Below, piece by piece: positions 46,782 to 64,000 of a DNA stretch of 64,000 nucleotides; position 1 is the first letter of the stretch; every line of letters begins with the position of its first letter. The notes below the pieces were generated by a model. That model was not told the DNA's origin. It ran no database searches and worked only from the letters and a program-made list of their open reading frames with translations. The position numbers and the translations under genes were made by a program. Location: the sequence record SRR9188677_86; one strand, written 5' to 3'.

Positions 46782-46797
46782 GGTAATTATATTTAGG

Positions 46798-48924: not shown

Positions 48925-48933
48925 TCTTAATAA
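48911..48933. promoter_or_regulatory. Iron-box operator A (9-5-9 palindrome)
   Basis: CTATTTAGA-AGCAT-TCTTAATAA, overlapping the receptor start codon. Confidence 0.65.
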
Positions 48934-48953
48934 TTTTGATGCAAATATATATG

Positions 48954-48976
48954 TTATTTTTAATTGTTCTAAATAA
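48954..48976. promoter_or_regulatory. Iron-box operator B between divergent -7 boxes
   Basis: TTATTTTTA-ATTGT-TCTAAATAA; TATATTTG boxes at 48942-48949 (-) and 48983-48990 (+). Confidence 0.7.
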
Positions 48977-49022
48977 ATATAATATATTTGCAGTAGAAAT
49001 TTTTATTAAATATTATAACCGT

Positions 49023-49937
49023 ATGAAAATCAAAACAATTCTATTTTCAACATCAATTTTGTTAGTTGGATTAACAGTAAATGGCCAGAATTCGAAAAAA
49101 GAGCAGGACATTAAAGCGATCAAATCGATGTGTGGATGCTATGAAGTTAAATTTAATTTTATCGAAACTTTTAATTACGCCAAGGATAATCCGGAGTACA
49201 AGCCTTCTGCAGAAAAACACGAAGTCGGACTGGAATGGGTTGAATTAGTAGAAGACCAGCCAAACAAATTAGTATTGCAGCATTTGCTAATCGTTGGTCC
49301 AAGAGAAAATGATATTGTAAAGCACTGGCGCCAGGATTGGCTATACGAAAACACTGAATTGCATTCCTTCTTTAAAGAAAGAAGCTGGAAATACAATAAA
49401 TTATCCTCTAAGGACGTAAAAGGCCAATGGACCCAGAAAGTATTTCAGGTAGATGACAGCCCAAGATACGAAGGAACCGCAAGCTGGGTTCACATAGACG
49501 GAACGGATTACTGGAAAAACACAACTGATGCACCGCTTCCAAGAAGAGAGCATACCAAACGTAATGATTACAATGTTCTGAAAAGAAGAAACATCCATGA
49601 AATCACAAAATCAGGCTGGATCCATGAGCAGGATAACGATAAATTGGTACGCGACGATAAAGGAACTGACGTATTGCTGGCACAGGAAAAAGGGATTGAT
49701 GTTTATACAAAAGTAGATGACAGCAAATGTAAAGCGGCTCAGGACTACTGGAAAACCAACGCGGAATTATGGAAAAAAGTAAGGGCTAAATGGGCTCTGG
49801 TTTTTGATCTAGATAAAGATTTATCAATGAAAAAACTCGTGGACGGCAAAAGCTTATATGAGTTTCTATTTGAATTGAAACCAACGGCATCTCAGGAAGA
49901 AGTAAACAAAGCCATCGATGATTTTATTGTAAAATAA
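49023..49937 (+). CDS. DUF6607-like secreted protein
   Basis: Start moved to ATG 49023 (signal peptide); AIKSMCGCYEV.F.F.ET, KHWRQDW.YE, WTQKVFQVDDSPRYE, PLPRRE. Confidence 0.75.
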   Translation: MKIKTILFSTSILLVGLTVNGQNSKKEQDIKAIKSMCGCYEVKFNFIETFNYAKDNPEYKPSAEKHEVGLEWVELVEDQPNKLVLQHLLIVGPRENDIVKHWRQDWLYENTELHSFFKERSWKYNKLSSKDVKGQWTQKVFQVDDSPRYEGTASWVHIDGTDYWKNTTDAPLPRREHTKRNDYNVLKRRNIHEITKSGWIHEQDNDKLVRDDKGTDVLLAQEKGIDVYTKVDDSKCKAAQDYWKTNAELWKKVRAKWALVFDLDKDLSMKKLVDGKSLYEFLFELKPTASQEEVNKAIDDFIVK

Positions 49938-49949
49938 TCTCCCAAAATT

Positions 49950-50294
49950 ATGTGTGAACTCAAAGTTTTAAATAGGACCAGCAACGGAGTTTTAGTTTTC
50001 TGCCAAAAGAAAGCAATGTATCAGCTGCTGTTTAACAATCTGACTTTTAGTTTAAATCAGATGGAACTTGATGGCTTTTTTGACTACATAAAAAACATAG
50101 ATTGCAATTACTGGGAACTGGAATACCGAAACTCTATTTATGAGAAGAAAATACCAATCCCTACCCTACAGAAAAACTTCCTAATACTGTTTGACCGTTT
50201 AGAAATAAAGGAACTGAAACTGCTTCTAAACTTCAATATCAAAGGCGAAGACCTTAAATATGCTGATATTAAATATCCTGTAAATTTAAATTAA
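49950..50294 (+). CDS. DUF6686-like small protein
   Basis: MC..., YQLLFNNL, IPIPTLQKN, C-terminal LN; 12 bp after the upstream stop. Confidence 0.65.
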   Translation: MCELKVLNRTSNGVLVFCQKKAMYQLLFNNLTFSLNQMELDGFFDYIKNIDCNYWELEYRNSIYEKKIPIPTLQKNFLILFDRLEIKELKLLLNFNIKGEDLKYADIKYPVNLN

Positions 50295-50387: not shown

Positions 50388-50472
50388 TTATTTATATTTA
50401 GTCTAAATAACTTTTGAAAAACTGTTTCATCTTTTATCTTTGCAAAAAATTATTTTAAATTAATCTTAATAA
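50388..50472. promoter_or_regulatory. Iron-box operators C and D flanking the receptor promoter
   Basis: TTATTTATA-TTTAG-TCTAAATAA (50388-50410); TATCTTTG (50435-50442); TTATTTTAA-ATTAA-TCTTAATAA (50450-50472). Confidence 0.7.
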
Positions 50473-50474
50473 GA

Positions 50475-52619
50475 GTGAAAAATATCTTTATCCTATCCTC
50501 AGCATTATTTGTTTCTGTGATTTCTTTTGGTCAGGAAACTCCAAAAGACACTATCAACAAATTGAAAGAAGTTGAAATCAACCTCAATAAATACAGATAC
50601 AAAAGGGAAAAAAGCACTACCGTTTCTAAAATGCCACTGAACAACATTGAAAACCCTCAGGTTTACAATACGGTTACCAGCGAGCTTTTGAAAGAACAAT
50701 TGGTTACCAATTTCAATGACGCTTTGAAAAACGCGACCGGAATCACAAGGCTTTGGGAATCAACAGGACGTGGCGGTGATGGTGCAGAATACTATTCTAT
50801 GCGCGGGTTCTCTGTGCAGCCAACAATGATCAACGGTTTGCCGGGAATCAACAACGGAAGTATTGATCCTATCAATGTAGATAATATTGAAGTGATCAAA
50901 GGCCCATCAGGAACTTTATTCGGCAGCAGCCTTATTTCTTATGGTGGATTGATCAACATCGTAACCAAAAAACCATACCAGAATTTTGGCGGCGAAATCG
51001 GGTATAACTCGGGTACTTATGGCATGGACAGGATCACTGCCGATGTCAATATCCCTTTAAATAAAGATGTTGCCGTTAGGATAACATCGGCTTATCAGAA
51101 TGAAGATTCGTTCCAGGATGCCGGTTTTTCAAAATCGCTGTTTGTTGCTCCGTCCTTAAGTTACAAAGTGAGTGACAGATTATCATTCTTAATCAATACC
51201 GAGTTTACCAACAGGACTACGGCAAGTGCTCCGATGATTTTCCTAAGCAGGTATTCCCCGGTTTCATTTTTTTCAATGGATCTGTTTGAGCAGAATTACA
51301 AAAACTCCTATACATCCAACGATTTGACAATGAGCAATCCTACATTTAATATGCAGGCACAGATGTTCTATAAATTATCAGATCAGTGGACCTCTCAAAC
51401 TGTTTTATCCAGAAGCAATGCCAGAACAAACGGATATTATTCGTATTTATGGGATTCAGCTAACGGAGATGAATTTACACGATTCATATCGAAAGCCAAT
51501 TCGCAGACACAGGGAACGGATATCCAACAGAACTTCATCGGTGATTTCAAAATCGGGAAACTCAGAAATCGCATGGTGGTTGGCATTGATTATTTAAACT
51601 TAAATCAAAGAAATGAAAACATGGGCTGGTTAGGTTTTGGAACCGTTTCTTTGGTAAACCAATCTGACCTGTATACGGATCCGGTTTCCGGAACAGTTGG
51701 AAATACTGAATTAACTCAAAATGCAGTAGATAAAGTTTTAGAAGGATCTTATACCGGTATTTCAAAATCCAAGAATGAAGTGATCAGTGCTTATGTTTCA
51801 GACGTTTTGAACATTACGGATAAACTATCGGTTATGGCTAGTTTAAGGGTGGATCATTTCATTACTGAAAGCTTCAACCAAACCGCGGTTTCACCAAAAT
51901 TCGGTGCTGTTTATCAGTTGATCGAAAATAAAGTATCGGTTTTTGGTAACTACATGAACGGGTTCAAAAATTCGGCTCCGGCCATCCAAAGCGACAACGT
52001 TACTTACAAAAGCTTCAAACCGGAACATGCCAACCAATATGAATTTGGATTGAAAACGAATCTATACAAAGACATTATTTCGGCAACGATCAGCTATTAT
52101 AATATTGATGTTACCGACAAGATCATGACCGATCCGGTTACGTTCATCAGCTCAATCCAGGGCGGAGAAGTGAACAGCAACGGGGTTGAAATCAGTTTTA
52201 CCGCCAATCCGATAAAAGGATTAAACGTGATTGCCGGCTACAGTTATAATGACAGTGAAGTGACACGTGATATTGTTGACGATTCTTATTTAGGCTACCG
52301 GCCGGAAGAAGCAGGTCCGAGAGCATTGGTTAACCTTTGGGCGAATTATACTTTTACAGAAGGGAAATTTAAAGGGTTCGGTATAGGATTTGGTGGAAAT
52401 TATGCCAGCGAATATCAGGTACTGCACCGAAAAAATACGGGGACTTTCACATTGCCAGATTACACCGTTTTGAATTCGGCACTGTCTTACAACACCGATA
52501 AGTTCAATATCACATTAAAGGCGAACAACCTTTTGAATGAAAAATATTATGCCGGCTGGTCAACCATCACTCCACAGCGTTTGAGAAGCTTAACTGCCGG
52601 ACTGACTTATAAATTTTAA
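50475..52619 (+). CDS. TonB-dependent siderophore receptor
   Basis: KMPL...ENPQ, SMRGF, IEVIKGPSGTLFG, GGLINIVTKKP, C-terminal TYKF; GTG start. Confidence 0.92.
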   Translation: MKNIFILSSALFVSVISFGQETPKDTINKLKEVEINLNKYRYKREKSTTVSKMPLNNIENPQVYNTVTSELLKEQLVTNFNDALKNATGITRLWESTGRGGDGAEYYSMRGFSVQPTMINGLPGINNGSIDPINVDNIEVIKGPSGTLFGSSLISYGGLINIVTKKPYQNFGGEIGYNSGTYGMDRITADVNIPLNKDVAVRITSAYQNEDSFQDAGFSKSLFVAPSLSYKVSDRLSFLINTEFTNRTTASAPMIFLSRYSPVSFFSMDLFEQNYKNSYTSNDLTMSNPTFNMQAQMFYKLSDQWTSQTVLSRSNARTNGYYSYLWDSANGDEFTRFISKANSQTQGTDIQQNFIGDFKIGKLRNRMVVGIDYLNLNQRNENMGWLGFGTVSLVNQSDLYTDPVSGTVGNTELTQNAVDKVLEGSYTGISKSKNEVISAYVSDVLNITDKLSVMASLRVDHFITESFNQTAVSPKFGAVYQLIENKVSVFGNYMNGFKNSAPAIQSDNVTYKSFKPEHANQYEFGLKTNLYKDIISATISYYNIDVTDKIMTDPVTFISSIQGGEVNSNGVEISFTANPIKGLNVIAGYSYNDSEVTRDIVDDSYLGYRPEEAGPRALVNLWANYTFTEGKFKGFGIGFGGNYASEYQVLHRKNTGTFTLPDYTVLNSALSYNTDKFNITLKANNLLNEKYYAGWSTITPQRLRSLTAGLTYKF

Positions 52620-52649
52620 TTGGAATTGAATTTCTTGTTTGTTTAAAAT

Positions 52650-52676
52650 AAGCTCCTCATTTTATGGGGAGTTTTT
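52650..52676 (+). terminator. Intercistronic hairpin / partial terminator
   Basis: AAGCTCCTCAT-TTT-ATGGGGAGTTTTT, 11 bp before the next ATG. Confidence 0.55.
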
Positions 52677-52687
52677 ATACTTTATAG

Positions 52688-53809
52688 ATGAAAAAAGACC
52701 GCTTCAAAAAAACTGTCCGGAACATCCACCTCTGGCTGGGATTAACTTCGGGGATTATCGTTTTTATAATTGCAGTTACAGGATGCCTGTACGCGTTTCA
52801 GGAAGAAATCCAGGACCTAACGGAAACTTACCGGTTTGTGGAAAAACAGGACTCCCCTTTCCTGCTGCCTTCTGAGCTCGAGAAAATTGCCCGAAAGGAA
52901 CTTCCCGGAAAATCACTGCATGCCATCAAATACAATGGCTCGGAAAAATCGGCTGAAGCTATTTTCTATCATTACGAACCTACTTATTACCATATCCTTT
53001 ACCTCAATCCGTATTCCGGCAAAGTGCTTGAAAAAGCCAATATGGAAGAAGGTTTTTTCCCGTTCATCCTTGACGGCCATTTTTACCTTTGGCTTCCGCA
53101 TGAAATTGGCCAGACTGTATGTGCTACTGCAACATTGATTTTCTTAATCATGATTGTTACAGGGCTTATCCTTTGGTATCCTAAAAACAAGAAAGCCGCC
53201 AAGCAACGCTTTTGGTTCCGCTGGAAAAAAGGCAGCAAATGGAAACGAAAAAACTACGATTTGCATAACATTACAGGTTTTTATGTGATGTCAATAGCAT
53301 TGATATTTGCCCTAACCGGTTTGGTTTGGGGGTTCCAATGGTTCGCTTTTAGCTACTACACGGCCATTGGCGGAGAAAAATCACTAATTTACACCGATCC
53401 AGTTTCTAAAAAAGAGGTTTCTTTTACTCCGATTGAAAAGCCACTAGATAAGGTTTGGGAATTGATGAATAAAGAATACCCAAAAGCCGAATCCATAGAA
53501 GTGCATCCGCCAGAAACCGATACCGCTTCAATCGCCGCCAATGCCAACCAGGACAAAGGGACTTACTGGAAAACGGATTACCGCTATTTCGATCAATATT
53601 CGCTCAAGGAAAAAGAAGTGGGCCATATTTATGGAAAACTGCAAAATGCCAGCACATCCGATAAGCTCATGCGAATGAACTATGACATCCATACCGGAGC
53701 CGTACTGGGATTGCCCGGAAAAATATTTGCCTTCTTAATAAGCCTGATGATTGCCAGCTTACCCATTACCGGATTCCTGATTTGGTATGGTAGAAAATAT
53801 AAAAAGTAA
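52688..53809 (+). CDS. PepSY-associated TM helix protein (PiuB/FoxB-like)
   Basis: HLWLGL, TGCLYAF, LNPYSG, DGHFYL, YDLHNITG, YDIHTG. Confidence 0.9.
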   Translation: MKKDRFKKTVRNIHLWLGLTSGIIVFIIAVTGCLYAFQEEIQDLTETYRFVEKQDSPFLLPSELEKIARKELPGKSLHAIKYNGSEKSAEAIFYHYEPTYYHILYLNPYSGKVLEKANMEEGFFPFILDGHFYLWLPHEIGQTVCATATLIFLIMIVTGLILWYPKNKKAAKQRFWFRWKKGSKWKRKNYDLHNITGFYVMSIALIFALTGLVWGFQWFAFSYYTAIGGEKSLIYTDPVSKKEVSFTPIEKPLDKVWELMNKEYPKAESIEVHPPETDTASIAANANQDKGTYWKTDYRYFDQYSLKEKEVGHIYGKLQNASTSDKLMRMNYDIHTGAVLGLPGKIFAFLISLMIASLPITGFLIWYGRKYKK

Positions 53810-53868: not shown

Positions 53869-55272
53869 TTACAGCGAATTTAAAAACAATAGCAATTCCT
53901 CCCTTTCTTTGGTAGATAATTGTTTGAATTTATTCTTAGCGGTTTGAGCTTCCCCGCCGTGCCAAAGAATAGCCTCAGTAACATTTCTGGCTCTTCCGTC
54001 GTGCATTAAATTAGTATGTTTGTTTACAGTTTCTATTAATCCCAATCCCCATAAGGCAGGCGTTTTCCATTCGCTTCCCGTTGCAAGGAAATCCGGGGCA
54101 TTATCTGCCAAATCAGGGCCCATGTCGTGCAATAGAAGGTCCGTATAAGGCCTGATGGTCTGATTTCGGAACGATGTTATGAAGTAGTCGTTTCCGGTCT
54201 GCATTTTAGGCGTGTGGCAGGCAGCACATCCTATAGTTTCAAAAGTTTTCTTTCCTCTTAATACCTCCTGTGTATTGTGATTTCTTCTCATCGGAACAGA
54301 CAAACTAAGCGAATACAAAACCACTCTGTTCAAGTTATCCTCTGATATTTCCGGGGTTCCGCCATTTGGTATTGAAGCGCAGTCTACACCGGGCGGGCAA
54401 TTCTCATCCGGAAACAATACCGAAGTGATTCCCATATCGCCAGAGAAAGCTGCCGCAACCTGCTGGCGTACATTAGGTTGATTCCCCTTCCATCCGAAAC
54501 GACCCAATTTTTGGGAATTGGATTGGATGTCGTAAACATAATTGGGTTTGCCTGATATACCGTCTCCATTGCTGTCTGTATCATCGGCACGGGCTAAAAT
54601 CGTTGCTTGAGGAACAGCTTCCAAAAGTCCTAAACCAATAATCTGGTTGGCTATCCTAGGGGAAACTTTTACTCCTGCGGCTAAAGGTCCATAACCTAAA
54701 TCTACAAACTGGTAAGTTGGTTTTTTAAGTGTAATTACTGTTCCGTCCGCGAGGGTTTCAGTCAAATCTTGGTTTAGGATATGGTAGCCGCCTTTTATAG
54801 TCTGTCCCAAAATAGCATTATCCTGAAGCTGGCTTCCATAAACAGGGTCAGGAAACGAACTTCCATTGGCATGAAAACCGTCAACGCTTAAACGCAATAA
54901 TAAGCCACGGGCTGTTTCTCCATTAAATCCCGGCGGCCTTCCCCTTCCGTCTTTAAAGTGGCAACTCGCACAGGCAACTGCATTGTAAAAAGGTCCCAAA
55001 CCGTCCCGAGCGGTGGTTGATGCCGGAGCCGAAACCCAGCTTTGCCTGAAAAAAGAGTTCCCTACACCAAAAGCAGACTGCTCGTCAAAAGTCAATCCGG
55101 AAGCAGAAAAACCAAACGCTTCTTCTGTAGCATTATTAATCGTAGCGGTTTGACCACCAGAAAACTGCTCGCCGTCTTCAGCAGTCAGTTCAACGTAATT
55201 GTCATCATTGTTGCTGCATCCTATAAGCTGGAAGCTAAGCAATAAAAAGAAAATCTTACTGTAATTTTTCAT
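53869..55272 (-). CDS. Di-haem oxidoreductase family lipoprotein (DHOR)
   Basis: Lipobox LIGC; DGLGPFYNAVACASCH, GLGLLEA, GRFGWK, CAACHTP, YTDLLLHDMG, WKTPALWG, MHDGRAR; start moved to ATG 55272. Confidence 0.9.
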   Translation of the reverse strand: MKNYSKIFFLLLSFQLIGCSNNDDNYVELTAEDGEQFSGGQTATINNATEEAFGFSASGLTFDEQSAFGVGNSFFRQSWVSAPASTTARDGLGPFYNAVACASCHFKDGRGRPPGFNGETARGLLLRLSVDGFHANGSSFPDPVYGSQLQDNAILGQTIKGGYHILNQDLTETLADGTVITLKKPTYQFVDLGYGPLAAGVKVSPRIANQIIGLGLLEAVPQATILARADDTDSNGDGISGKPNYVYDIQSNSQKLGRFGWKGNQPNVRQQVAAAFSGDMGITSVLFPDENCPPGVDCASIPNGGTPEISEDNLNRVVLYSLSLSVPMRRNHNTQEVLRGKKTFETIGCAACHTPKMQTGNDYFITSFRNQTIRPYTDLLLHDMGPDLADNAPDFLATGSEWKTPALWGLGLIETVNKHTNLMHDGRARNVTEAILWHGGEAQTAKNKFKQLSTKEREELLLFLNSL

Positions 55273-55282
55273 TATAAACAGG

Positions 55283-55311
55283 AAAAAGTGACCTTTTCCA
55301 AAGCCACTTTT
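55283..55311 (-). terminator. Intercistronic hairpin / partial terminator between imelysin 1 and DHOR
   Basis: Minus strand AAAAGTGGCTTT-GGAA-AAGGTCACTTTTT. Confidence 0.55.
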
Positions 55312-55336
55312 CATTTATTGTTATCCTATAATCGTA

Positions 55337-56509
55337 TTAATTAAATGTGATTCCGATTTTAGCTGCACCAGCTAATAAATTGGACCCGAAATTTTGCAAC
55401 TGCAATACAGCTACCCTTACTTTGGCTCCTTCAACAGAACCAACACCGCCAGAAATTGCCATATCAAACGGAGTCTGGATTGCAGCAACTTTGGTCAATG
55501 AAGATTGCAGAGAAGCTTCCGTATCATTGTAAGTCTCAACATCAGCATTTCTTACCATGTCTTCTAAAGACTGGCCGTCAATATCCCCATATTTACCTTG
55601 GTATACATTGATAACACCTTTAAGGTTAAGATAAATATCGCGGTGAGTATTGTCACTAAAACAAGAGTGCTCGTCTTCCTGATCTTCATTCAATAAAGCA
55701 ACATCCATTCTTTCAATTGGTAATTCTGCAGAAACAAGCGTAGTGATTCCCAAGTAAATATTTTGGATTGCCTCATTAACCGGTAAGCTTAAGAAGGTAG
55801 CCCTGTAAGTTCCTCCAACTTTCCACTGCTGTACCAGATAATCCAAATGATCCGTAAGCAGATCAGCGCAAACTTTAAGATAAGTAGCTCTTCTTTCCTG
55901 ATTTGTAGCTGTTCCTCCTGCCCCTACTACGTAGTCGGTGTAAGGTCGTTGCCCAGGAAGATTAGCAGACGGAGCAGTTAAATCCTGTCCCCAAAGCAAA
56001 AATTCGATGGCATGGTAACCACAGCTGATGTTTTTCTCGCCACCGTTTTCGTTTAAGGTCTCTAATAAAGCTTTGTCGATTGTTGGGTAAGTTGCAGTCG
56101 CGTTGATTATCCCTCCCGGAGTTGGGGCTCCGTCAACATAATCAATATAGTTCTCATCTAGCGGCCATGCATTTAATAAACCTTCCGGTCCCGTTGCTTC
56201 AGCATCGATAGGCCCGTTGGCAAAACGGAATGCTTCAGTCGTACCATAGCTTTCTCTTGCTTCTTTCCATTTAGTTTTTGCTGCCGTAAAATTAGCATCG
56301 GTCGGAGTTGTTGTAAATGTATTGATAGCAGCTTCAAGCTCTACCGCATCATCATAAGCATCTTTGTAATTTTGATAAGCGATATTGGCATAATTTAGTA
56401 CTACATCGGCCTTAATGGTACCCGTGCTGTTTGAATTGTCATCGCTACAAGAAGCTACAAAAATCCCTGCTGCCAAAACCAACGCCGCTTTTAAAGAAGT
56501 GTTTTTCAT
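55337..56509 (-). CDS. Imelysin family lipoprotein 1 (IrpA/IcmP/LruB-like)
   Basis: Lipobox VASC + SDD; TEAFRF, NAWPLDENYIDY, GYHAIEFLLWGQD (GxHxxE), EDEHSCFSDNT. Confidence 0.9.
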   Translation of the reverse strand: MKNTSLKAALVLAAGIFVASCSDDNSNSTGTIKADVVLNYANIAYQNYKDAYDDAVELEAAINTFTTTPTDANFTAAKTKWKEARESYGTTEAFRFANGPIDAEATGPEGLLNAWPLDENYIDYVDGAPTPGGIINATATYPTIDKALLETLNENGGEKNISCGYHAIEFLLWGQDLTAPSANLPGQRPYTDYVVGAGGTATNQERRATYLKVCADLLTDHLDYLVQQWKVGGTYRATFLSLPVNEAIQNIYLGITTLVSAELPIERMDVALLNEDQEDEHSCFSDNTHRDIYLNLKGVINVYQGKYGDIDGQSLEDMVRNADVETYNDTEASLQSSLTKVAAIQTPFDMAISGGVGSVEGAKVRVAVLQLQNFGSNLLAGAAKIGITFN

Positions 56510-56574
56510 TACATTGTTATTTAGAATAATTAAATTTAAAGCAAAAGTATAGAGTTTGCCGAAACCAGCAAATT

Positions 56575-56597
56575 TTATTTAGATTTATTTTAAATAA
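56575..56597. promoter_or_regulatory. Iron-box operator between the divergent imelysin promoters
   Basis: TTATTTAGA-TTTAT-TTTAAATAA; extra half-site TTATTTAGA at 56517; TACTTTTG boxes at 56542-56549 (-) and 56623-56630 (+). Confidence 0.7.
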
Positions 56598-56645
56598 TTA
56601 ATAAATATTTATTCCGATTATGTACTTTTGCCAAAATTTAAACCC

Positions 56646-57767
56646 ATGAAGAAATTATTCCTCGTACTAAGTATAGTAGCTGTTATTGTAGCTGCAAGCT
56701 GTTCCTCATCCTCTTCAGGAGATGAAAACGGTCCGGACAATTTTGACAGAACCGCACTGCTGACCAATTGGGCCGATAATATCATCGTCCCAAGCTATGT
56801 TAATTACCAGACAAAACTTCAGGCTTTAGTTGCGGATGTTGCTGCTTTTAACACAACTCCAAACGAAGCCAATCTTCAAACCGTAAGGGCTTCCTGGCTT
56901 GAAGCCTACAAATCGTATCAGAAAGTTGCGATTTTTTATATTGGAAAAGCTGCTGACATCAGCCTTAATGAAAGTGCCAACACCTTCTCTGCCGATGCTG
57001 CCGGAATCGAAGCCAACGTTGCTTCAGGAACTTACGACTTAAATCAATTCGCGCAATTTCCAAAACAGGGCTTTCCGGGATTGGATTATCTGATAAACGG
57101 ATTGGGTATTAATGATACGGCAATCGTTGCTTTCTATTCTACAAATGCCAACGCGATAAAATACAAGCAGTACTTAACCGCGGTAACGGCCAAGCTTAAG
57201 TCAAATGTTGATTCGGTAATCACTGACTGGAATTCCGGCTACAGGGAAACGTACATTGCAAGCAACGGAAGAGGAGTCAACAGTTCCGTTAGCAAAACAA
57301 CCAATTTGTTTGTAAAAACCCTTGAAAAACCAATACGCACAGGCAAAATCGGAATACCTGCCGGGTTATTTTCGAGCGGAACAAAATTCCCTGAAAAAGT
57401 GGAAGCTTACTACAAAAACAACGTTTCAAGAGAATTGCTTACTGTAGCGATCCAGGCAGAACAAGATTTCTTCAACGGAAAACACGCCAACAGCGCTACA
57501 ACGGGCGAAAGTCTAAAATCGTATTTGGATTACCTCAATGCAGTCAGAAGCGGACAGAACCTAAGCACCGTAATCAACAATCAGTTTACTGCAATTTTCA
57601 ACTCGAACACTACTCTGAATGAAAGTTTTTCACAACAGATCACTACTGATAATTCAAAGATGATTGCTGCCAACACGGTAATTCAGCAACAGATTATCTA
57701 TCTGAAACTAGATATGATGCAGGCACTCAACATAACTGTTGACTACGTTGACGGCGATGGCGATTAA
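56646..57767 (+). CDS. Imelysin family lipoprotein 2
   Basis: Lipobox AASC; WADNIIVPSY, QGFPGLDYL, KIGIPAG, C-terminal DYVDGDGD; start moved to ATG 56646. Confidence 0.82.
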   Translation: MKKLFLVLSIVAVIVAASCSSSSSGDENGPDNFDRTALLTNWADNIIVPSYVNYQTKLQALVADVAAFNTTPNEANLQTVRASWLEAYKSYQKVAIFYIGKAADISLNESANTFSADAAGIEANVASGTYDLNQFAQFPKQGFPGLDYLINGLGINDTAIVAFYSTNANAIKYKQYLTAVTAKLKSNVDSVITDWNSGYRETYIASNGRGVNSSVSKTTNLFVKTLEKPIRTGKIGIPAGLFSSGTKFPEKVEAYYKNNVSRELLTVAIQAEQDFFNGKHANSATTGESLKSYLDYLNAVRSGQNLSTVINNQFTAIFNSNTTLNESFSQQITTDNSKMIAANTVIQQQIIYLKLDMMQALNITVDYVDGDGD

Positions 57768-57770
57768 TCG

Positions 57771-59138
57771 ATGAAAAGCCGCATTTCAAAATATCTGAAT
57801 TCTTATTCACAGGCCTCAACGCTAGCTTTTTTCAGGCTAGCGTTTGGTTTAATGATGCTTTTGAGTTTGGTTCGTTTTGCAAGCTACGGCTGGATTGAAA
57901 AATTCTACATCAAACCACAATTCCATTTCACTTATTACGGTTTCAGCTGGGTTAAACCACTGGGAATTTACACTTACCTCCTGTTTATAATTTGTGGCCT
58001 GGCTGCTCTGTGCCTTGCCCTGGGCTACAAATACAGATTGGCAGCAATCACGTTCTGCCTGAGTTTTACCTACATCGAATTCATGGATAAAACCACTTAC
58101 TTAAACCATTATTATTTCATAACGATAGTGAGTTTTGTTTTGATTTTCCTACCGGCGAATTGTTATTTTTCGATCGATGCTTACAAGAATCCGAAACTGG
58201 CCTTCCAGAAAATCCCAAGCTGGAATGTTGACATCCTGAAACTGCTTTTAGCGATTGTCTACATTTATGCCGGTCTGGCTAAAATCAACTCCGATTGGCT
58301 TTTAGAAGCGATGCCTTTGAAAATCTGGTTGCCGTCTAATTCTGATTTACCGATTATTGGTTCGTGGCTGAATAAAAACTGGGTAATTTATTCCTTCAGC
58401 TGGATTGGGATGGTTTACGATTTACTCATTGTTTTCCTTTTATTGTACAAACCAACGCGATTGTTCGCTTTCGCCCTGGTTGTCATTTTCCATGTGCTTA
58501 CGCGTATACTATTCCCTATCGGGATTTTCCCTTACGTGATGATTATCAGCACGCTGATTTTCTTCGAGGCGGATTTCCATAAAAAATGCTTAGAAATTGC
58601 ATCACGGTTCTTCCGTTTCAATCTAACTGTTTTCGAAAATGGAAAAGAGAAAATACAGCAATTCACTAATCTTTATAAGGCCAAATTAACTTTTACCACA
58701 GCCTTTTTAGTCTTTCAGTTGTTGTTTCCGTTCCGGTATTTATTGTATCCGAATGAACTCTTCTGGACGGAAGAAGGTTTCCGCTTTTCCTGGCGCGTGA
58801 TGCTGATGGAAAAGGCAGGTTACACCCAATTCACCGTTACCGACAGCAAAACCCAAAAAACCATACATATAAATAATTCGTTATTCCTAACAGCATTCCA
58901 GGAAAAACAAATGTCGTTTCAGCCCGATTTCATTCTGGAATACGCCCATTACCTGCACGATTTTTATCAGAAACAAGGCTACAATGATCCTGAAGTACAC
59001 GTAGAAAGCTACGTCGCCCTAAACGGAAGATTGAGCCAGAAATACATAGACCCGGAAATAAATTTAGCCAAAGAAAATGAATCATTCCTGCACAAAACCT
59101 GGATTTTACCTTTTAACGATGAAATCAAAGGGCTTTAG
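57771..59138 (+). CDS. HTTM domain protein, vitamin K-dependent gamma-carboxylase homologue
   Basis: LAFFRLAFG, FHFTYYGFSWV.P, DKTTYLNHYY, YIYAGLAKINSDW, GIFPYVM, FSWRVML, VALNGRLSQKYIDPEINL. Confidence 0.88.
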   Translation: MKSRISKYLNSYSQASTLAFFRLAFGLMMLLSLVRFASYGWIEKFYIKPQFHFTYYGFSWVKPLGIYTYLLFIICGLAALCLALGYKYRLAAITFCLSFTYIEFMDKTTYLNHYYFITIVSFVLIFLPANCYFSIDAYKNPKLAFQKIPSWNVDILKLLLAIVYIYAGLAKINSDWLLEAMPLKIWLPSNSDLPIIGSWLNKNWVIYSFSWIGMVYDLLIVFLLLYKPTRLFAFALVVIFHVLTRILFPIGIFPYVMIISTLIFFEADFHKKCLEIASRFFRFNLTVFENGKEKIQQFTNLYKAKLTFTTAFLVFQLLFPFRYLLYPNELFWTEEGFRFSWRVMLMEKAGYTQFTVTDSKTQKTIHINNSLFLTAFQEKQMSFQPDFILEYAHYLHDFYQKQGYNDPEVHVESYVALNGRLSQKYIDPEINLAKENESFLHKTWILPFNDEIKGL

Positions 59139-61545
59139 TTTTTTACTTTTTTTAATCTCGCTTACTGCTTTTTCCCAGACTACGGTGAATGGAGTTGTAA
59201 CTTCATCCAACGGGACAAGATTGGCTTATGTAGAAATCTTCAACAAAACTTTGGCAACCAAAACCACAACAAACAGCAAAGGGGAATTTACTATAAAATT
59301 TGAAGACAATTCATCCTGCCAGATTGCTTTTTACGCTGAAAATCATGCCATTGCTGAAAGAACAGTAGCTCCATCAGACCATAATCTGGAAATCATTTTG
59401 GAGAAAATCAACAAGCTTTCCGAAGTGGTAATCAATAAGGAAAGGGAAAAAATATCAGCGTTAAACAGACTAAGAGACATCGAGGAAACTGCCATTTACG
59501 CCGGAAAGAAAACCGAAGTGGTTTCGGTTGACAAACTAACCGTGAACAAAGCAACCAACAATGCCCGCCAGATTTACGCTCAGGTTGTAGGGCTTACCAT
59601 CAACGAAAGTACCGATGGCGGATTGCAGCTAAGCATAGGCGGAAGAGGACTAAACCCAAACCGTACCTCCAATTTCAACACACGCCAGAACGGTTACGAC
59701 ATCAGCGCCGATGTTTTGGGGTATCCCGAAAGTTATTACGCCACGCCTACCGAAGCCCTTGCCGAAATCCAGATTGTGCGTGGTGCCGCTTCTTTACAGT
59801 ATGGTACACAGTTTGGCGGTTTGGTAAACTTCAAGCTGAAATCCCCGGCAAAAAAACCTTTAGAGTTGATTACCAGAAACACGGTTGGCTCCTATAATCT
59901 GTTTACCAACTTCACATCCATAAGCGGAACAACAGGAAAATTCAGTTACTACTCGTTTTTCAATTTCAAGCAAGGAGACGGTTTCCGACCAAATTCCGAA
60001 TTCAACAGCAAGAATTATTTTGCCAATTTAAACTACCAGTTTTCGGATAGGACCTCGCTTCATTTTGACTATACCTATTTCACCTATCTGGCAAAACAGC
60101 CGGGTGGCCTCACGGATGAAATGTTTGAGGAAGATCCGGCACAAAGCAACAGGACACGGAACTGGTTTGCGGTAGATTGGAATTTATTTGCCCTGCGCCT
60201 GAAACATAAATTTACCAATAATGCCGATTTTTCACTGCAATTGTTCGGATTGGATGCCAGCAGGAAAGCGCTTGGTGGTTCCCGGCTGAACCGGATTGAA
60301 CTTGCGGACCCACCCGGAACGGAACGGGATTTGGTTATAGGCGATTTCGTGAACTGGGGTGGCGAAGCACGTTATCTGCAACGCTATAAAATCAAAGACA
60401 ATACGAATGCCTTTTTAATTGGTGCCAAATATTACCAATCAAGGAATACCGGAATACAAGGGCCCGGAAGTTCGTCAAGCGGTGCCGATTTCCATTTTGC
60501 GAATGAGGAGTTTCCGTTTTATACGCATCAGTCGGACTATGTTTTCCCGAATATAAATTACTCCCTTTTTGGAGAAAATATCTTTAAGGTTTCGCCTAAA
60601 TTCTCGATTACGCCCGGTTTCCGTTTTGAAAAGATCAGAACGCAGGCAAAAGGCTCTTACCGAACGATCAACCGCGATTTTGCAGGGAATATAATCCTTG
60701 ACGAAACTATTGAGGAGAACAATGTCAAAGACCGGAATTTCATACTGCTGGGTGTTGGCCTAAGTTATAAACCTAAGAACACAATCGAGTTTTACGGAAA
60801 CCTTTCTCAGAATTACCGTTCGGTAACCTTCAACGATATCAGGACAGTCAATTCAAACCAGCTGATCTCGCCCGACATTACCGATGAAAAAGGGTTTACT
60901 TCCGATATTGGAATCCGCGGGCAGATTGGTAGTAAAGTTACCTTTGACTCGAGCATTTACGGATTGTACTATGACGCTAAAATCGGGGAATATTATACAG
61001 AATCCGGGCAGAGAGTAGTTTTGCTTCGCGATAATATCGGAACTGCTTTCACTTACGGATTTGAAACCATGCTGGACTGGAGCATCAGCCGGACTTTTTT
61101 TGAAGGAAATGATGATTTCACCTGGAATTTGTTTACCAATACCGCCTTTACAGATTCCCAATATTTAAAATCCGACCAGCCTAACATAGAAGGTAAAAAA
61201 GTCGAATTCGTTCCGCTGGTCAACCTAAAAACAGGAACCGGGATCGGGTACAGAAACTTTGTGTCTAGCATTCAGCTTACGTATGTTTCCAAACAATTTA
61301 CCGATGCAACCAATTCGAGCGTTGGTGCCAATGACATCAGTGATGGCGTCAGCGGTGAAATCCCGGCCTATTATGTTGCTGATTTTTCGGCATCATACAA
61401 ATGGAAGCAATTCAAGCTGGAAGCCGGGATCAACAACTTTACCAACAACAGCTACTTCACCAGAAGGGCCACAGGATATCCGGGACCGGGGATCATACCT
61501 TCAGAAAACAGGACGTTTTACACTACCCTGGAATTCAAATTCTAA
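59119..61545 (+). CDS. TonB-dependent receptor (FecA-like) with N-terminal carboxypeptidase-like domain
   Basis: RGLNPNRT, GYPESYY, IVRGAASLQYG, YFTRRA, C-terminal EFKF; start moved to ATG 59119 (signal peptide), overlapping the HTTM gene end. Confidence 0.9.
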   Translation: MKSKGFSFLLFLISLTAFSQTTVNGVVTSSNGTRLAYVEIFNKTLATKTTTNSKGEFTIKFEDNSSCQIAFYAENHAIAERTVAPSDHNLEIILEKINKLSEVVINKEREKISALNRLRDIEETAIYAGKKTEVVSVDKLTVNKATNNARQIYAQVVGLTINESTDGGLQLSIGGRGLNPNRTSNFNTRQNGYDISADVLGYPESYYATPTEALAEIQIVRGAASLQYGTQFGGLVNFKLKSPAKKPLELITRNTVGSYNLFTNFTSISGTTGKFSYYSFFNFKQGDGFRPNSEFNSKNYFANLNYQFSDRTSLHFDYTYFTYLAKQPGGLTDEMFEEDPAQSNRTRNWFAVDWNLFALRLKHKFTNNADFSLQLFGLDASRKALGGSRLNRIELADPPGTERDLVIGDFVNWGGEARYLQRYKIKDNTNAFLIGAKYYQSRNTGIQGPGSSSSGADFHFANEEFPFYTHQSDYVFPNINYSLFGENIFKVSPKFSITPGFRFEKIRTQAKGSYRTINRDFAGNIILDETIEENNVKDRNFILLGVGLSYKPKNTIEFYGNLSQNYRSVTFNDIRTVNSNQLISPDITDEKGFTSDIGIRGQIGSKVTFDSSIYGLYYDAKIGEYYTESGQRVVLLRDNIGTAFTYGFETMLDWSISRTFFEGNDDFTWNLFTNTAFTDSQYLKSDQPNIEGKKVEFVPLVNLKTGTGIGYRNFVSSIQLTYVSKQFTDATNSSVGANDISDGVSGEIPAYYVADFSASYKWKQFKLEAGINNFTNNSYFTRRATGYPGPGIIPSENRTFYTTLEFKF

Positions 61546-61579
61546 AAAAGAAGTCCCGGTTTATCGGGACTTCTTTTTT
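61544..61579. terminator. Bidirectional intrinsic terminator
   Basis: A6-GAAGTCCCG-GTTTAT-CGGGACTTC-T6. Confidence 0.88.
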
Positions 61580-63860
61580 ATCGTCTGGAATTGAAAAAAT
61601 CTTCAAAAACCAAACAGCTCGAAAGTTCTTCGTTGTATTGCGGATACTCGGTTTTTAACTGGTTGGGCGTATTGGCATACCCCTGGGTGAAATTGACCAT
61701 GTGCAGGCACAAAGCCCGGAATTTATCCGATTTTGAGGTTTTGTAGGCCATCTGGTAATACAGTTTGGTTATCGATCTTGTTCGGTATTCGAGATTGTCG
61801 ATATACGATTCATTCAGATAAGTATCATCATAAGTCGAGTAGCTTGAAAAGCGGCGCATCATCCAGGAATTCCCCATATCGGTCATGTTCAGGTAGCAAT
61901 TGGCCACGAGGAAATAATAATAATCCCGGTCTTTCCGTTTGGGGTCGTTGGCCAGTTTTAAATATTTTACCAGATGTTCCGTAACGGACAATTTGTTTAC
62001 AAAATAATGCTCTTTCGGCTTGATAAATTTATCCGTGTAAGGAATCACATAAAACGGATTTTCATCAAATGACGAATATTCGTCGTATTTCCCTCTCTCC
62101 CACGCATTGTAATTCTGCTGCCAATACTGCTCCGGCAAAGACCTAAAAGCAGTTAGGGCCATATGAAGCTTTTCCTCCCGGATATACTTTGTACCCAATA
62201 AATCAATCAGGTAATTTTTGTCTTTGGATAGGGTGCCATATAAAAAATCATCCTTTTTATCCGATGCCAATCCGTTGAGCTGGTCAAGGATGGACTGCAA
62301 ATCTGCCGCAGGATAAACGAAATCCAGATAATCGTAATAGTTGTAGAAAACATCGAGATTAGAAGATGTATTGAGCCTGTTTCCGCGCCATTCCACATCA
62401 TCCGCATTGGAGCCAATTTCGTGGTAAAACGTGCTGTTTAGTGAAATTAGCGCAATCCCGTCAAAGAGATTTCCCTTAAATTCCAATTCCCTCCCCAGTG
62501 CAAAAAGGAAGCGGCTGTCGGTTTTGTTCCTTTCAACAATTGCTTTCACTTCATCTGTGATAACGGCTTTTCCGTAAGCCTGTTTTGCCGTGATACAAAG
62601 CGCTTTTATCTTTTCGATTTCAACAATTACTTTCTCTTTTTTGTACCTACTTTCAAAAGCATTTATTTTTGCCAATGCAGCATCATACTGATTGGTCATG
62701 AACAGCAACTGGATTTCGGCAGCTTTCCATAAAACCGGATTGGCGACTTTGTTAAAATCGACTGCTGATACAAAATCCAAAACTTCCTTGGCATACAAAC
62801 GGTCTTTAGCCGAACGTTCGCGCAAGGTTAGCGTGGTTATCTTGCTATCCGCGCTTTCGCTGTAATAATCTGACTGCTCAACGGATGGGGAATAATTCGT
62901 ATAATAAGGTGTATAAATCCAGTCTTCCAGCTTATTGACTTCGCGCAGCAGCAGGAAATCGAGCGTGTTGAATTTCGGTTTGTTTTTATAGATGATTTTT
63001 AGGTAATCCAGGTTTTTGTTCAGGATTCTCGCAGAAGCATAAGCATAAAGATTTGCTACCTGATTTGGGGTTTTAGCAAATGCCAATGCCTTTTCCAGAT
63101 TAAACTTCCCTGAAAAATAAAACTGGCTCGCAAAAGCCTTTTCCTGTGAATTGGCGAAAATATCGGCAACATCGTTGTAATTTCCGGTTGCTTCTGATGT
63201 AAAACAATGGAAATATAAGCTCCAGTAATACAGGTAATCTTTCTTCGAATTCCGGAACTCCTCAGCAAAAATAGAACGGATAAGCTCAGTATTTGAATTG
63301 TAAAACCCTAATCGGATGCATTGGAACGCGTACTTTCTTTTCAAAAATTTATCTTTCTCATTGGCGTAAGCGGTAACCAATTCCGTTTCAAACTTTCCGG
63401 ATGCCCTGCGCTGTGATTCTTCTGCCCGTTCCCAGGAATTTTCATTATTGAATGCATTGAATCCTTCGCATTTTTTGGTAAAAATCAGATAGCGGATGGC
63501 ATTGGTTTTCTTATTCTTAAAGAGGTATTTCAGAAATTCGTTATCCGAATTGGAATAGATGTCCGTCAGTTTCATTTCGTTGTTGAAGTAGGCAATCTGA
63601 TCAATATCTACTTTTTTTCCGGTGTAATTATACCAGTCAAGAACATTCGCCTCGAAATTGATTTTGGCCGGATAAGTAGCGCTCATGCTATCGTATCCCC
63701 AGGCAAAATTGTTGTAATAAAACCCGTAATACTGATTGAAATTAAAGTACTTAGGATTAAAAAGACAATACCTCACATCCTCGCCATACGGGGAATACCC
63801 GCAAGCCGAAACCCTAAAACTACTTAGTAAAAGTATCGTAAAAACCAGTAATTTCTTCAT
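61578..63860 (-). CDS. Large secreted alpha-helical hypothetical protein
   Basis: Signal peptide ending SACG; TPR-like helices; Tyr-rich; start moved to ATG 63860. Confidence 0.75.
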   Translation of the reverse strand: MKKLLVFTILLLSSFRVSACGYSPYGEDVRYCLFNPKYFNFNQYYGFYYNNFAWGYDSMSATYPAKINFEANVLDWYNYTGKKVDIDQIAYFNNEMKLTDIYSNSDNEFLKYLFKNKKTNAIRYLIFTKKCEGFNAFNNENSWERAEESQRRASGKFETELVTAYANEKDKFLKRKYAFQCIRLGFYNSNTELIRSIFAEEFRNSKKDYLYYWSLYFHCFTSEATGNYNDVADIFANSQEKAFASQFYFSGKFNLEKALAFAKTPNQVANLYAYASARILNKNLDYLKIIYKNKPKFNTLDFLLLREVNKLEDWIYTPYYTNYSPSVEQSDYYSESADSKITTLTLRERSAKDRLYAKEVLDFVSAVDFNKVANPVLWKAAEIQLLFMTNQYDAALAKINAFESRYKKEKVIVEIEKIKALCITAKQAYGKAVITDEVKAIVERNKTDSRFLFALGRELEFKGNLFDGIALISLNSTFYHEIGSNADDVEWRGNRLNTSSNLDVFYNYYDYLDFVYPAADLQSILDQLNGLASDKKDDFLYGTLSKDKNYLIDLLGTKYIREEKLHMALTAFRSLPEQYWQQNYNAWERGKYDEYSSFDENPFYVIPYTDKFIKPKEHYFVNKLSVTEHLVKYLKLANDPKRKDRDYYYFLVANCYLNMTDMGNSWMMRRFSSYSTYDDTYLNESYIDNLEYRTRSITKLYYQMAYKTSKSDKFRALCLHMVNFTQGYANTPNQLKTEYPQYNEELSSCLVFEDFFNSRR

Positions 63861-64000
63861 GGCTGTATTTCTTAAAAATGGATTCATCTAAATCAAAAAG
63901 GGAAATGGTAGTATCGGCATCCAGCGAAACGTTTTTCTTGATGATGGCTATCGCTTCGTTCAAGGTTTTAGCGGAAACTTCTTCGCATTTTATCTGATCG
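63820..64000 (-). CDS. C-terminus of an upstream hypothetical protein (truncated by window edge)
   Basis: Open minus frame DQIKCEEVSAKTLNEAIAIIKKNVSLDADTTISLFDLDESIFKKYSHEEITGFYDTFTK*, overlapping the next start by 41 bp. Confidence 0.65.
   Translation of the reverse strand, partial: DQIKCEEVSAKTLNEAIAIIKKNVSLDADTTISLFDLDESIFKKYSHEEITGFYDTFTK

Follow-up and report, generated by a model that had tools for sequence, protein, structure and literature searches.

The window analysed here, a 64,000 nucleotide stretch of sequence record SRR9188677_86, encodes a homologue of the human vitamin K-dependent carboxylase GGCX in one operon with an imelysin-like lipoprotein and a TonB-dependent receptor. 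We suggest, with a probability of about 0.85, that an active, quinol dependent enzyme of the vitamin K-dependent gamma-carboxylase (VKGC) type is an integral part of this iron module. That the enzyme carboxylates the lipoprotein is a more tentative proposal, which heads our list of possible functions and still falls short of an even chance. The operon consists of the following features, in window coordinates:

56577..56595, no strand assigned: Fur-type operator-like palindrome ATTTAGATTTATTTTAAAT, 51 nt before the lipoprotein ATG
56646..57767, plus strand: imelysin-like lipoprotein ("imelysin 2"), 373 aa, lipobox Cys19, Pfam PF09375
57771..59138, plus strand: HTTM protein, the vitamin K-dependent carboxylase homologue, 455 aa, PF05090 and PF22777
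59119..61545, plus strand: TonB-dependent receptor, 808 aa counted from the ATG at 59119, with an N-terminal CarboxypepD_reg-like domain and Plug and TonB barrel domains (Pfam)

A preliminary description of this DNA had proposed a tight three gene operon, and the open reading frames (ORFs) and junctions agree with it: a 3 bp gap separates the lipoprotein gene from the HTTM gene, and the HTTM and receptor genes overlap by 20 bp. This arrangement could couple translation of the enzyme with that of the receptor and the lipoprotein. An in-frame TTG at 56628 is an alternative start for the lipoprotein, less likely because the lipoprotein signal MKKLF...AASC begins at 56646; the signal peptide reads MKKLFLVLSIVAVIVAASC. 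The receptor has a further upstream ATG at 59077. A sigma-70 promoter scan of positions 56400-61700 gave the same counts as shuffled sequence and is uninformative for this phylum. It should be noted that the genome-level counts given below come from relatives of the window and not from the window's own genome.

The carboxylase homologue and its active site

The HTTM protein is a true GGCX homologue, as the preliminary description had recognized. Pfam assigns the domains HTTM (PF05090, 272 bits, E 5e-81) and VKGC_lumenal_dom (PF22777, 197 bits, E 2e-58), with cut-offs of 27.7. A phmmer search against PDB sequences gave human GGCX only (8 distinct sequences, best E 1.1e-43), aligning residues 5-448 of the query with residues 51-505 of GGCX. 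The four GGCX motifs named in the preliminary description are all found in this alignment as the pairs DKTTYLNHYY / DKTSWNNHSY, YAGLAKINSDW / IAGVKKLDADW, FSWRVML / YSWDMMV and LNGRLSQKYIDP / INDRFQQRIFDP. An AF2 model of the enzyme, built from 35 sequences, has a mean predicted local distance difference test (pLDDT) value of 87.5. Foldseek returned 16 matches in the PDB at E <= 1e-3, all of them GGCX chains, at a TMq of about 0.84 (up to 0.85).

The enzyme has about nine transmembrane helices and a periplasmic "lumenal" domain, and both homology and the positive-inside rule predict an active site that faces away from the cytoplasm. It shares the fold of human GGCX and keeps the equivalents of Trp390, Trp399 and Trp501. 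It differs from the human enzyme in its length (455 aa versus 758 aa) and in that its cofactor would be menaquinol and no propeptide-bearing substrates are known. Consistent with the menaquinone background assumed in the preliminary description, menA scored over its cut-off in all five carrier genomes tested.

According to a preprint on GGCX (bioRxiv 10.1101/2025.02.09.637231), Lys218 serves as the base; Asn159, His160 and Tyr395 are the residues that bind the carboxylate of the Glu, Asn158 and Arg436 keep the main chain of the substrate in place, and Phe286, Phe294, Phe299, Val210, Trp223 and Met401 form the quinone pocket. The accessible part of PMC12647623 describes CO2 as trapped by Phe299 and His160, with Met401/402, bicarbonate at Lys218 and Asp263 as a relay. 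In the window enzyme, K171, H113, N112, D217 and F253 correspond to human K218, H160, N159, D263 and F299, respectively. Further equivalents are W176 (Trp223), F240 (Phe286), F248 (Phe294), V163 (Val210), A167 (Ala214), M344 (Met402) and W444 (Trp501).

The equivalents of K218, H160, N159, D263, W223, F286, F294, F299, W390 and W399 are kept in all 81 orthologues, as are those of Val210, Ala214 and Met402; the position of M401 is Val in 81 of 81. We also aligned a diverse set of 143 sequences, made up of the window protein and 142 of 150 listed representatives with a length of 400-760 aa (8 were dropped). Here the Lys is kept in 140, and the His, the Asn and the equivalent of F299 in 142 each. 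Conservation of the catalytic Lys and His among orthologues, on which the preliminary description had let its reading depend, therefore extends from the close orthologues (81 of 81) to the diverse set (140-142 of 143). The same authors as above (PMC12647623) state, in the text available, that the catalytic residues are conserved in bacterial orthologues, with Kordia algicida among 13 species; an imelysin or TonB context is apparently not discussed there.

Bacteroidota also have a second lineage of full-length proteins with HTTM and VKGC_lumenal domains, 30-34% identical to the window protein, which retains the same active-site and loop residues. Its members in loci L081 (6689-8044, minus strand) and L082 (6966-8294, plus strand) lie among housekeeping genes, and the copy in L026 (5566-6894, plus strand) is placed directly 3' of the operon receptor. 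Some relatives of the enzyme (P0055, P0043 and P0087) have extra domains, which suggests protein partners in other contexts; these are TPR or Sel1 repeats at the C-terminus or, inserted between the HTTM and lumenal domains, a DCC1-like thiol-disulfide oxidoreductase domain. None of 20 scanned representatives of 508-729 aa has an imelysin domain.

Probable iron control, and exchange of the enzyme in relatives

The iron box claimed in the preliminary description is real as a sequence pattern and is a predicted site: positions 56577-56595 match the 19-mer Fur box published for Riemerella (PMC5609570, in the part available) with 2 mismatches. The whole window has 6 matches with <=3 mismatches at four places, the others being at 48913, 48956 and 50390, versus 0.13 expected from shuffles. 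Of 70 related loci, 64 have a box with <=3 mismatches upstream of their leading operon gene, versus 0 of 350 coding-region windows, a contrast that is overstated, coding DNA being a lenient background and AT-rich intergenic DNA giving more chance matches. Seven further loci, with too little upstream sequence, were skipped in this count. The position of the box, constant at about 90-100 nt ahead of the first gene, carries more weight.

For Riemerella anatipestifer, Table 4 of PMC5609570 records that RAYM_09779, RAYM_09784, RAYM_09789 and RAYM_09794 respond to iron restriction by induction (WT-Fe/WT+Fe 2.11-3.07). The set RAYM_09779-09794 is annotated as a TonB receptor, a "vitamin K-dependent gamma-carboxylase", an imelysin lipoprotein and a hypothetical protein, and in the accessible text these genes are listed in the table without comment. 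The annotated gene order is that of the window operon; the match was made from annotated names and gene order alone and not by sequence alignment. The Riemerella set has a fourth gene, the hypothetical one, whereas the window has no such fourth gene (DUF4856-type) in its 64 kb. The operon may belong to a Fur regulon, the conserved operator-like box being present here and induction by iron limitation being recorded for the Riemerella genes of the same annotation only.

The gene set is conserved. In a scan with one genome per species we found at least 590 relatives of the enzyme, and kept the best 80 loci (59-78% identity), which come from Flavobacteriaceae, Balneolales, Fulvivirga and Chitinophagales. 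The lipoprotein gene precedes the enzyme gene in 77 of the 80, the other three having no upstream flank, and the receptor gene follows it in 79, the remaining locus being cut. Hence the co-occurrence of the three genes that the preliminary description had proposed to look for recurs wherever the flanks allow. The junction between enzyme and receptor genes, as extrapolated from tblastn, overlaps in 75 of 79 loci and by exactly 20 nt in 62 of 79. In 65 of 80 loci the first gene of the operon encodes a DUF4856 protein. This gene is absent from eight other loci with adequate flank and, by tblastn, from the 64 kb of the window, and DUF4856 has no PDB sequence match. Beyond these four core genes, only housekeeping neighbours recur in the 80 loci.

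Some variation is seen within the module. One locus (G021:C7:123358-128232) has two tandem lipoprotein copies between the DUF4856 and HTTM genes. In two small genomes (G059:C13:17270-18638 and G130:C1:71834-73185) the iron-type HTTM gene appears broken, with several in-frame stops or in three fragments, next to DUF4856 and lipoprotein genes that seem to be whole; decay of the enzyme or an assembly error may be the cause.

We examined two genome samples for carriers of the module. The order sample holds 151 genomes from the order of locus L017 and was scored for the lipoprotein by profile A2, for HTTM at >=42% identity and for an orthologue of a membrane di-iron FA_hydroxylase at E <= 1e-40. 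DUF4856 was found in 43 of these genomes, the lipoprotein family in 44, HTTM in 38 and FA_hydroxylase in 8; HTTM lies on the same contig as DUF4856 in 35 of the 36 genomes having both. Among the 44 lipoprotein carriers, 38 have HTTM and 6 have FA_hydroxylase, none has both and none has neither. The remaining two hydroxylase genomes are G076, in which a contig end interrupts the DUF4856 gene, and G063, in which no other part of the module is present.

The phylum sample holds 251 genomes, 6 of them common to the order sample. Of its 47 carriers, 45 have HTTM adjoining the lipoprotein gene, one (G315) has an unlinked HTTM gene, and one (G378) has FA_hydroxylase and no HTTM. An iron-type HTTM copy lacking a lipoprotein partner was found in G351 only, where the copy begins 219 bases from a contig end. 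As no carrier has both enzymes or neither (44 of 44 and 47 of 47), we conclude that the two are alternative and apparently obligatory parts of one module.

The order sample gave seven HTTM-less loci, of which six are informative, L088 being cut by a contig end. FA_hydroxylase and DoxX genes are placed divergently upstream of the module in L083 and L089, and in five hydroxylase-type genomes FA_hydroxylase is located elsewhere. In the third locus where the hydroxylase adjoins the module, L091 of G378, the order is hydroxylase, DUF4856, lipoprotein, receptor, so that DoxX neighbours the hydroxylase in 2 of 3 such loci. The L091 lipoprotein and receptor are 63% and 74% identical to those of the window, and 175 nt are found where the HTTM gene would be. 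These hydroxylase cassettes share with the HTTM form the DUF4856, imelysin-like and receptor families, the DGD tail of the lipoprotein and a complementary distribution. They differ in that their enzyme is unrelated (PF04116, His-box di-iron) and itself iron-requiring, and in the placing of its gene, which is found outside the junction of the lipoprotein and receptor genes or at another site in the genome.

A receptor tree has three changes of enzyme type. A single clade of all seven hydroxylase-type receptors is rejected (lnL difference 198, p-AU 9.5e-11), with L091 having been entered after its high identity was known; with the six hydroxylase-type rows that exclude L091, a single clade is not rejected (p-AU 0.108). 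The enzyme types were swapped at least twice. The swap argues that a quinol- and O2-dependent functionalisation or redox step matters, rather than CO2 fixation itself.

In L084 (8831-9880), L086 (6053-7099, minus strand) and L087 (8682-9734), the gene that follows the receptor gene encodes a ferric-iron binding protein of the FutA/FbpA type (E 3e-96 to 6g7n). Its presence in 3 of the 6 informative HTTM-less loci is a hint that the iron brought into the periplasm by the module is unchelated Fe(III).

Candidate reactions and substrates

The lipoprotein belongs to Peptidase_M75 (PF09375, 85.5 bits, E 6e-24). Its AF2 model (pLDDT 93.2) matches the folds of ICMP (7xrx), IPPA (3pf0) and BDI_2603 (4ecg) at TMq 0.69-0.72. 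The GxHxxE motif of canonical imelysin, IrpA and EfeO is missing; the corresponding QGFPGLDYL has no His and has Asp for Glu. The C-terminus ...DYVDGDGD is present as the preliminary description had read it and is unstructured in the model, with a pLDDT of 47 for the last three residues. It follows the pattern D-[YF]-V-D-x-DGD-COOH, the DGD end occurring in 76 of 77 HTTM-linked orthologues and being invariant in an alignment of 37 lipoprotein sequences. We predicted a complex of the HTTM protein with the mature lipoprotein, which was classed as "weak support" with a score of 0.58, the best of 3 controls scoring 0.00. The runs agree in >=79% of contacts, with a partner pLDDT of >=88. The tool's mark is reached by 51 of 78 solved complexes and by 2 of 108 mismatched pairs; at scores <=0.60, only 5 of the same 78 reach it, together with all 4 of the mismatches (of 180) that passed.

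We suggest the following model. The module would be a Fur-controlled iron-acquisition operon, typical of aerobic Bacteroidota, of DUF4856, imelysin-like lipoprotein, VKGC-type enzyme and TonB-dependent receptor, with the window having the form that lacks DUF4856. The enzyme, whose active site would lie on the periplasmic side of the inner membrane, would use menaquinol and O2 to make a strong base. This base would take a proton from an Asp or Glu side chain of the exported lipoprotein before that protein leaves the inner membrane, the leading candidate site being the invariant, flexible D-x-DGD C-terminus. CO2 would then be added to give a malonate-type bidentate ligand, completing a ferric-iron site that would feed the receptor. 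In hydroxylase-type lineages, a hydroxyl group would be the equivalent second ligand. We rank carboxylation of the lipoprotein first because the residues that hold the carboxylate and trap CO2 are kept, because MloH, a bacterial VKGC orthologue, is reported to carboxylate an aspartyl residue (PMC12647623; 10.64898/2026.08.19.745780; in the accessible parts), and because there is a weak partner signal. An extended form of the model, in which two unrelated enzymes each equip the D-x-DGD tail with a second chelating group (beta-carboxy-Asp/Gla or beta-hydroxy-Asp) and so form a siderophore-like Fe(III) site feeding the receptor, with the metal-free enzyme as an iron-sparing replacement, seems to us improbable.

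Several observations weigh against carboxylation of the lipoprotein. Part of the human Glu pocket is altered, and part of the substrate clamp is absent. Among the orthologues N158 is replaced by L (81 of 81), L394 by G (81 of 81) and R436 by Q (80 of 81), and the position of Y395 is F in 42 and Y in 39 of 81. The window residues at these altered Glu-pocket positions are L111, G336, F337 and Q380, and K217 is Ala. The substrate loop (human 393-404) reads TEEGFRFSWRVM versus human TNGLYGYSWDMM, with E334, R338 and R342 invariant. The loop signature WTEEGFRFSWRVM is common to paralogues in non-iron contexts, and therefore the pocket is not tailored to the operon and the signature marks the bacterial family. 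About 250 C-terminal GGCX residues (about 505-758), part of the substrate clamp and the propeptide-binding region, have no counterpart. Of 5 carrier genomes, 1 gave a match to VKOR (PF07884), so that there is no obvious epoxide recycling. The complex score of 0.58 lies in a range where the tool is more often wrong than right. In G315 the enzyme copy, 55% identical, is unlinked to the module, the sole exception among the 47 carriers of the phylum sample. The interchange with a di-iron hydroxylase means that the product need not be a carboxyl group. The alternative enzyme is an oxygenase of the hydroxylase or desaturase type, from a family whose members act on lipids, and a membrane or small-molecule substrate common to both enzymes would agree with this at least equally well. 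The orthologue from Leptospira, a bacterial full-length vitamin K-dependent carboxylase orthologue reportedly studied by Rishavy and colleagues in 2005, is said to have epoxidase activity and no carboxylase activity with test substrates. Finally, carboxylation, epoxidation and the identity of the substrate are all things that we infer.

The tail itself counts on the same side. The preliminary description had cautioned that a terminal DGD also occurs in loci that have no HTTM gene, and this is borne out: all six lipoprotein orthologues from HTTM-less (hydroxylase-type) loci have the DGD tail, and an imelysin-like protein next to the di-haem gene in L007 also ends in DNDGD. We therefore rejected the tail as an HTTM-specific mark. 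Being present in both locus types, it is a feature of the family and a weaker pointer to carboxylation, and it fits both enzymes acting on the tail.

A quinol enzyme that does not carboxylate is possible, if doubtful. It would use menaquinol with O2, in an epoxidase-type reaction yielding a base or oxidant, or as a direct reductant of ferric iron held by the lipoprotein, and would be an inner-membrane redox partner in the way that EfeB/Fet3-type proteins are with EfeO/Ftr1-type ones; the di-iron hydroxylase with DoxX would be an alternative quinol-linked redox module. The interchange with an O2-activating di-iron enzyme, which adjoins DoxX in L083 and L089 (2 of 6 informative loci) and the module in L091, agrees with this, and so does the HTTM protein being the sole integral inner-membrane protein among the operon products. 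The receptor gene overlap and the weak complex signal (0.58 versus 0.00) would suit a stoichiometric partner, and the lack of VKOR in 4 of 5 genomes fits a chemistry that leaves no epoxide. Imelysin-family proteins are furthermore "almost always" associated with a peroxidase (PMC3143127, in its available text). The epoxidase activity, with no carboxylase activity, reported for the Leptospira orthologue would fit this reading too. However, in canonical GGCX chemistry the quinol supplies all four electrons for O2 and no second substrate is oxidised, and no metal-binding motif is evident in the enzyme. The equivalents of F299, H160, N159 and M402 are also as conserved as the quinol base, an argument that is not decisive, the same residues lining the quinone pocket.

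We regard it as unlikely that the substrate is a small molecule or lipid (an amino-acid lipid head group, a quinone derivative or an imported organic acid being candidates), carboxylated here, or hydroxylated in other lineages, into a chelator that the lipoproteins and the receptor handle. MloH acts on a biosynthetic intermediate and not on a ribosomal protein (PMC12647623; 10.64898/2026.08.19.745780; available portions), half of the human protein-substrate clamp is missing here, and the substrate loop is common to paralogues in unrelated contexts. Yet the 80 loci show no conserved genes for biosynthesis, export or acyl carriers, and the FutA/FbpA-type protein in 3 of 6 HTTM-less loci suggests that unchelated Fe(III) arrives. 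There is very little to recommend a passenger gene, placed in the operon by chance or co-regulation and having a general envelope function unrelated to iron. The 30-34% identical paralogues in housekeeping contexts and the unlinked 55% identical copy in G315 would fit it. Against this stand the synteny in every locus with flank, the conserved 20 nt overlap, an enzyme that is present or exchanged in every carrier (44 of 44, 47 of 47), and the finding of no iron-type copy in any genome shown to be free of the lipoprotein family.

The lone HTTM gene of G315 is found in L090 (G315:C2:232000-243000), which has no lipoprotein or receptor gene within 5 kb; a lipoprotein match lies about 1.7 Mb off on the same contig.

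Neighbouring genes, known systems and wider meaning

The receptor belongs to an uncharacterised subfamily of TonB-dependent receptors, as judged from its sequence. The label "FecA-like" used in the preliminary description did not hold: all NCBIfam hits of the receptor stay under their cut-offs, with 67.5 bits for the FecA model NF041676 (cut-off 1100) and 103 for TIGR01783 (cut-off 223.5), and it has no PDB sequence match at E <= 1e-3. We rejected an identity as FecA on these NCBIfam scores.

Two further genes, neighbours outside the core, are encoded upstream of the operon:

53869..55314, minus strand: di-haem DHOR (DUF1111-type), PF06537 9e-94, same orientation as the canonical imelysin gene
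55337..56509, minus strand: canonical imelysin lipoprotein, PF09375 3e-66, with GYHAIE

The 136 bp intergenic region that holds the Fur-type box is common to the lipoprotein operon and the divergent canonical imelysin gene. The divergent imelysin and di-haem pair lies upstream in 16 of 80 loci only. In L003 the imelysin gene is found alone at a contig end, in L029 it is downstream, and in L007 the di-haem gene is downstream. The pair is a lineage-specific neighbour outside the core.

The surrounding 16 kb form an iron island that ends in this operon. In brief, the island encodes an HmuY-like protein with a receptor, DUF6607 and DUF6686 proteins, a siderophore receptor with PepSY_TM, and the di-haem DHOR with the canonical imelysin. 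The genes for DUF6607 (352 aa) and DUF6686 (114 aa) are located at 48879-50294 (plus strand) between two receptor operons. Fur-box-like sites at 48913-48931 and 48956-48974 lie at their start and are shared with the divergent operon of a receptor and an HmuY-like protein at 45351-48924 (minus strand). DUF6607 and DUF6686 are probably further uncharacterised members of the iron regulon. At 50475-53809 (plus strand), a siderophore-type receptor (TIGR01783 over cut-off) is followed by PepSY_TM, with a Fur-box-like site at 50390-50408; this pair also adjoins the module in L091. A 769 aa ORF at 61578-63887 (minus strand), convergent with the receptor gene, has a signal-peptide-like start and a Cys, and gave no match in Pfam or NCBIfam.

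The available text of PMC3143127 describes Fur-regulated imelysin operons that have no permease, PA4370-PA4373 of P. aeruginosa and VC1264-VC1266 of V. cholerae, and also EfeUOB. These systems resemble the module in that they are regulated by iron, have an imelysin-fold protein without the motif His (IPPA/PA4372-like) and are constantly accompanied by an oxidant-using enzyme, and the divergent imelysin and di-haem DHOR of the window are exactly the known imelysin-operon pair of that work. They differ in having no HTTM enzyme, DUF4856 protein or dedicated receptor; HTTM and TonB are unmentioned in the text available.

MloH of Streptomyces malonomycin biosynthesis, here compared by its published description, is like the window enzyme bacterial and VKGC-type, and sets a precedent for Asp over Glu chemistry. 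It is encoded in an antibiotic cluster and acts on a hybrid polyketide-peptide intermediate, whereas the window operon has no biosynthetic genes. According to the accessible part of 10.64898/2026.08.19.745780, MloH is fused to a DUF5819-like region.

Both protein families, VKGC and imelysin, were described before, as was the entry in the Riemerella table. In the searchable literature, which excludes subscription-only papers, we found no discussion of a link between VKGC and iron uptake, of its obligatory nature or of the hydroxylase exchange. Bacterial VKGC orthologues are numerous, with 5059 clusters at E <= 1e-3, and in the available text of the papers cited a function is assigned to MloH only, in an antibiotic pathway. 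The enzyme described here is found in hundreds of species (at least 590 relatives), and among the genomes sampled from Bacteroidota and Flavobacteriales about a fifth to a quarter carry it. A probably iron-regulated setting, three candidate partners and a natural substitute enzyme make the role of bacterial VKGC enzymes testable, and point to a missing step in the poorly understood imelysin-type iron uptake. Should the extended form of the model hold, vitamin K-dependent carboxylation of a protein would be seen for the first time in bacteria, and for the first time in metal uptake. If carboxylation is confirmed, the system would provide a small, metal-free CO2-fixing enzyme to study. Vitamin K-dependent formation of metal sites would then extend from the calcium-binding proteins of animals to bacterial iron capture.

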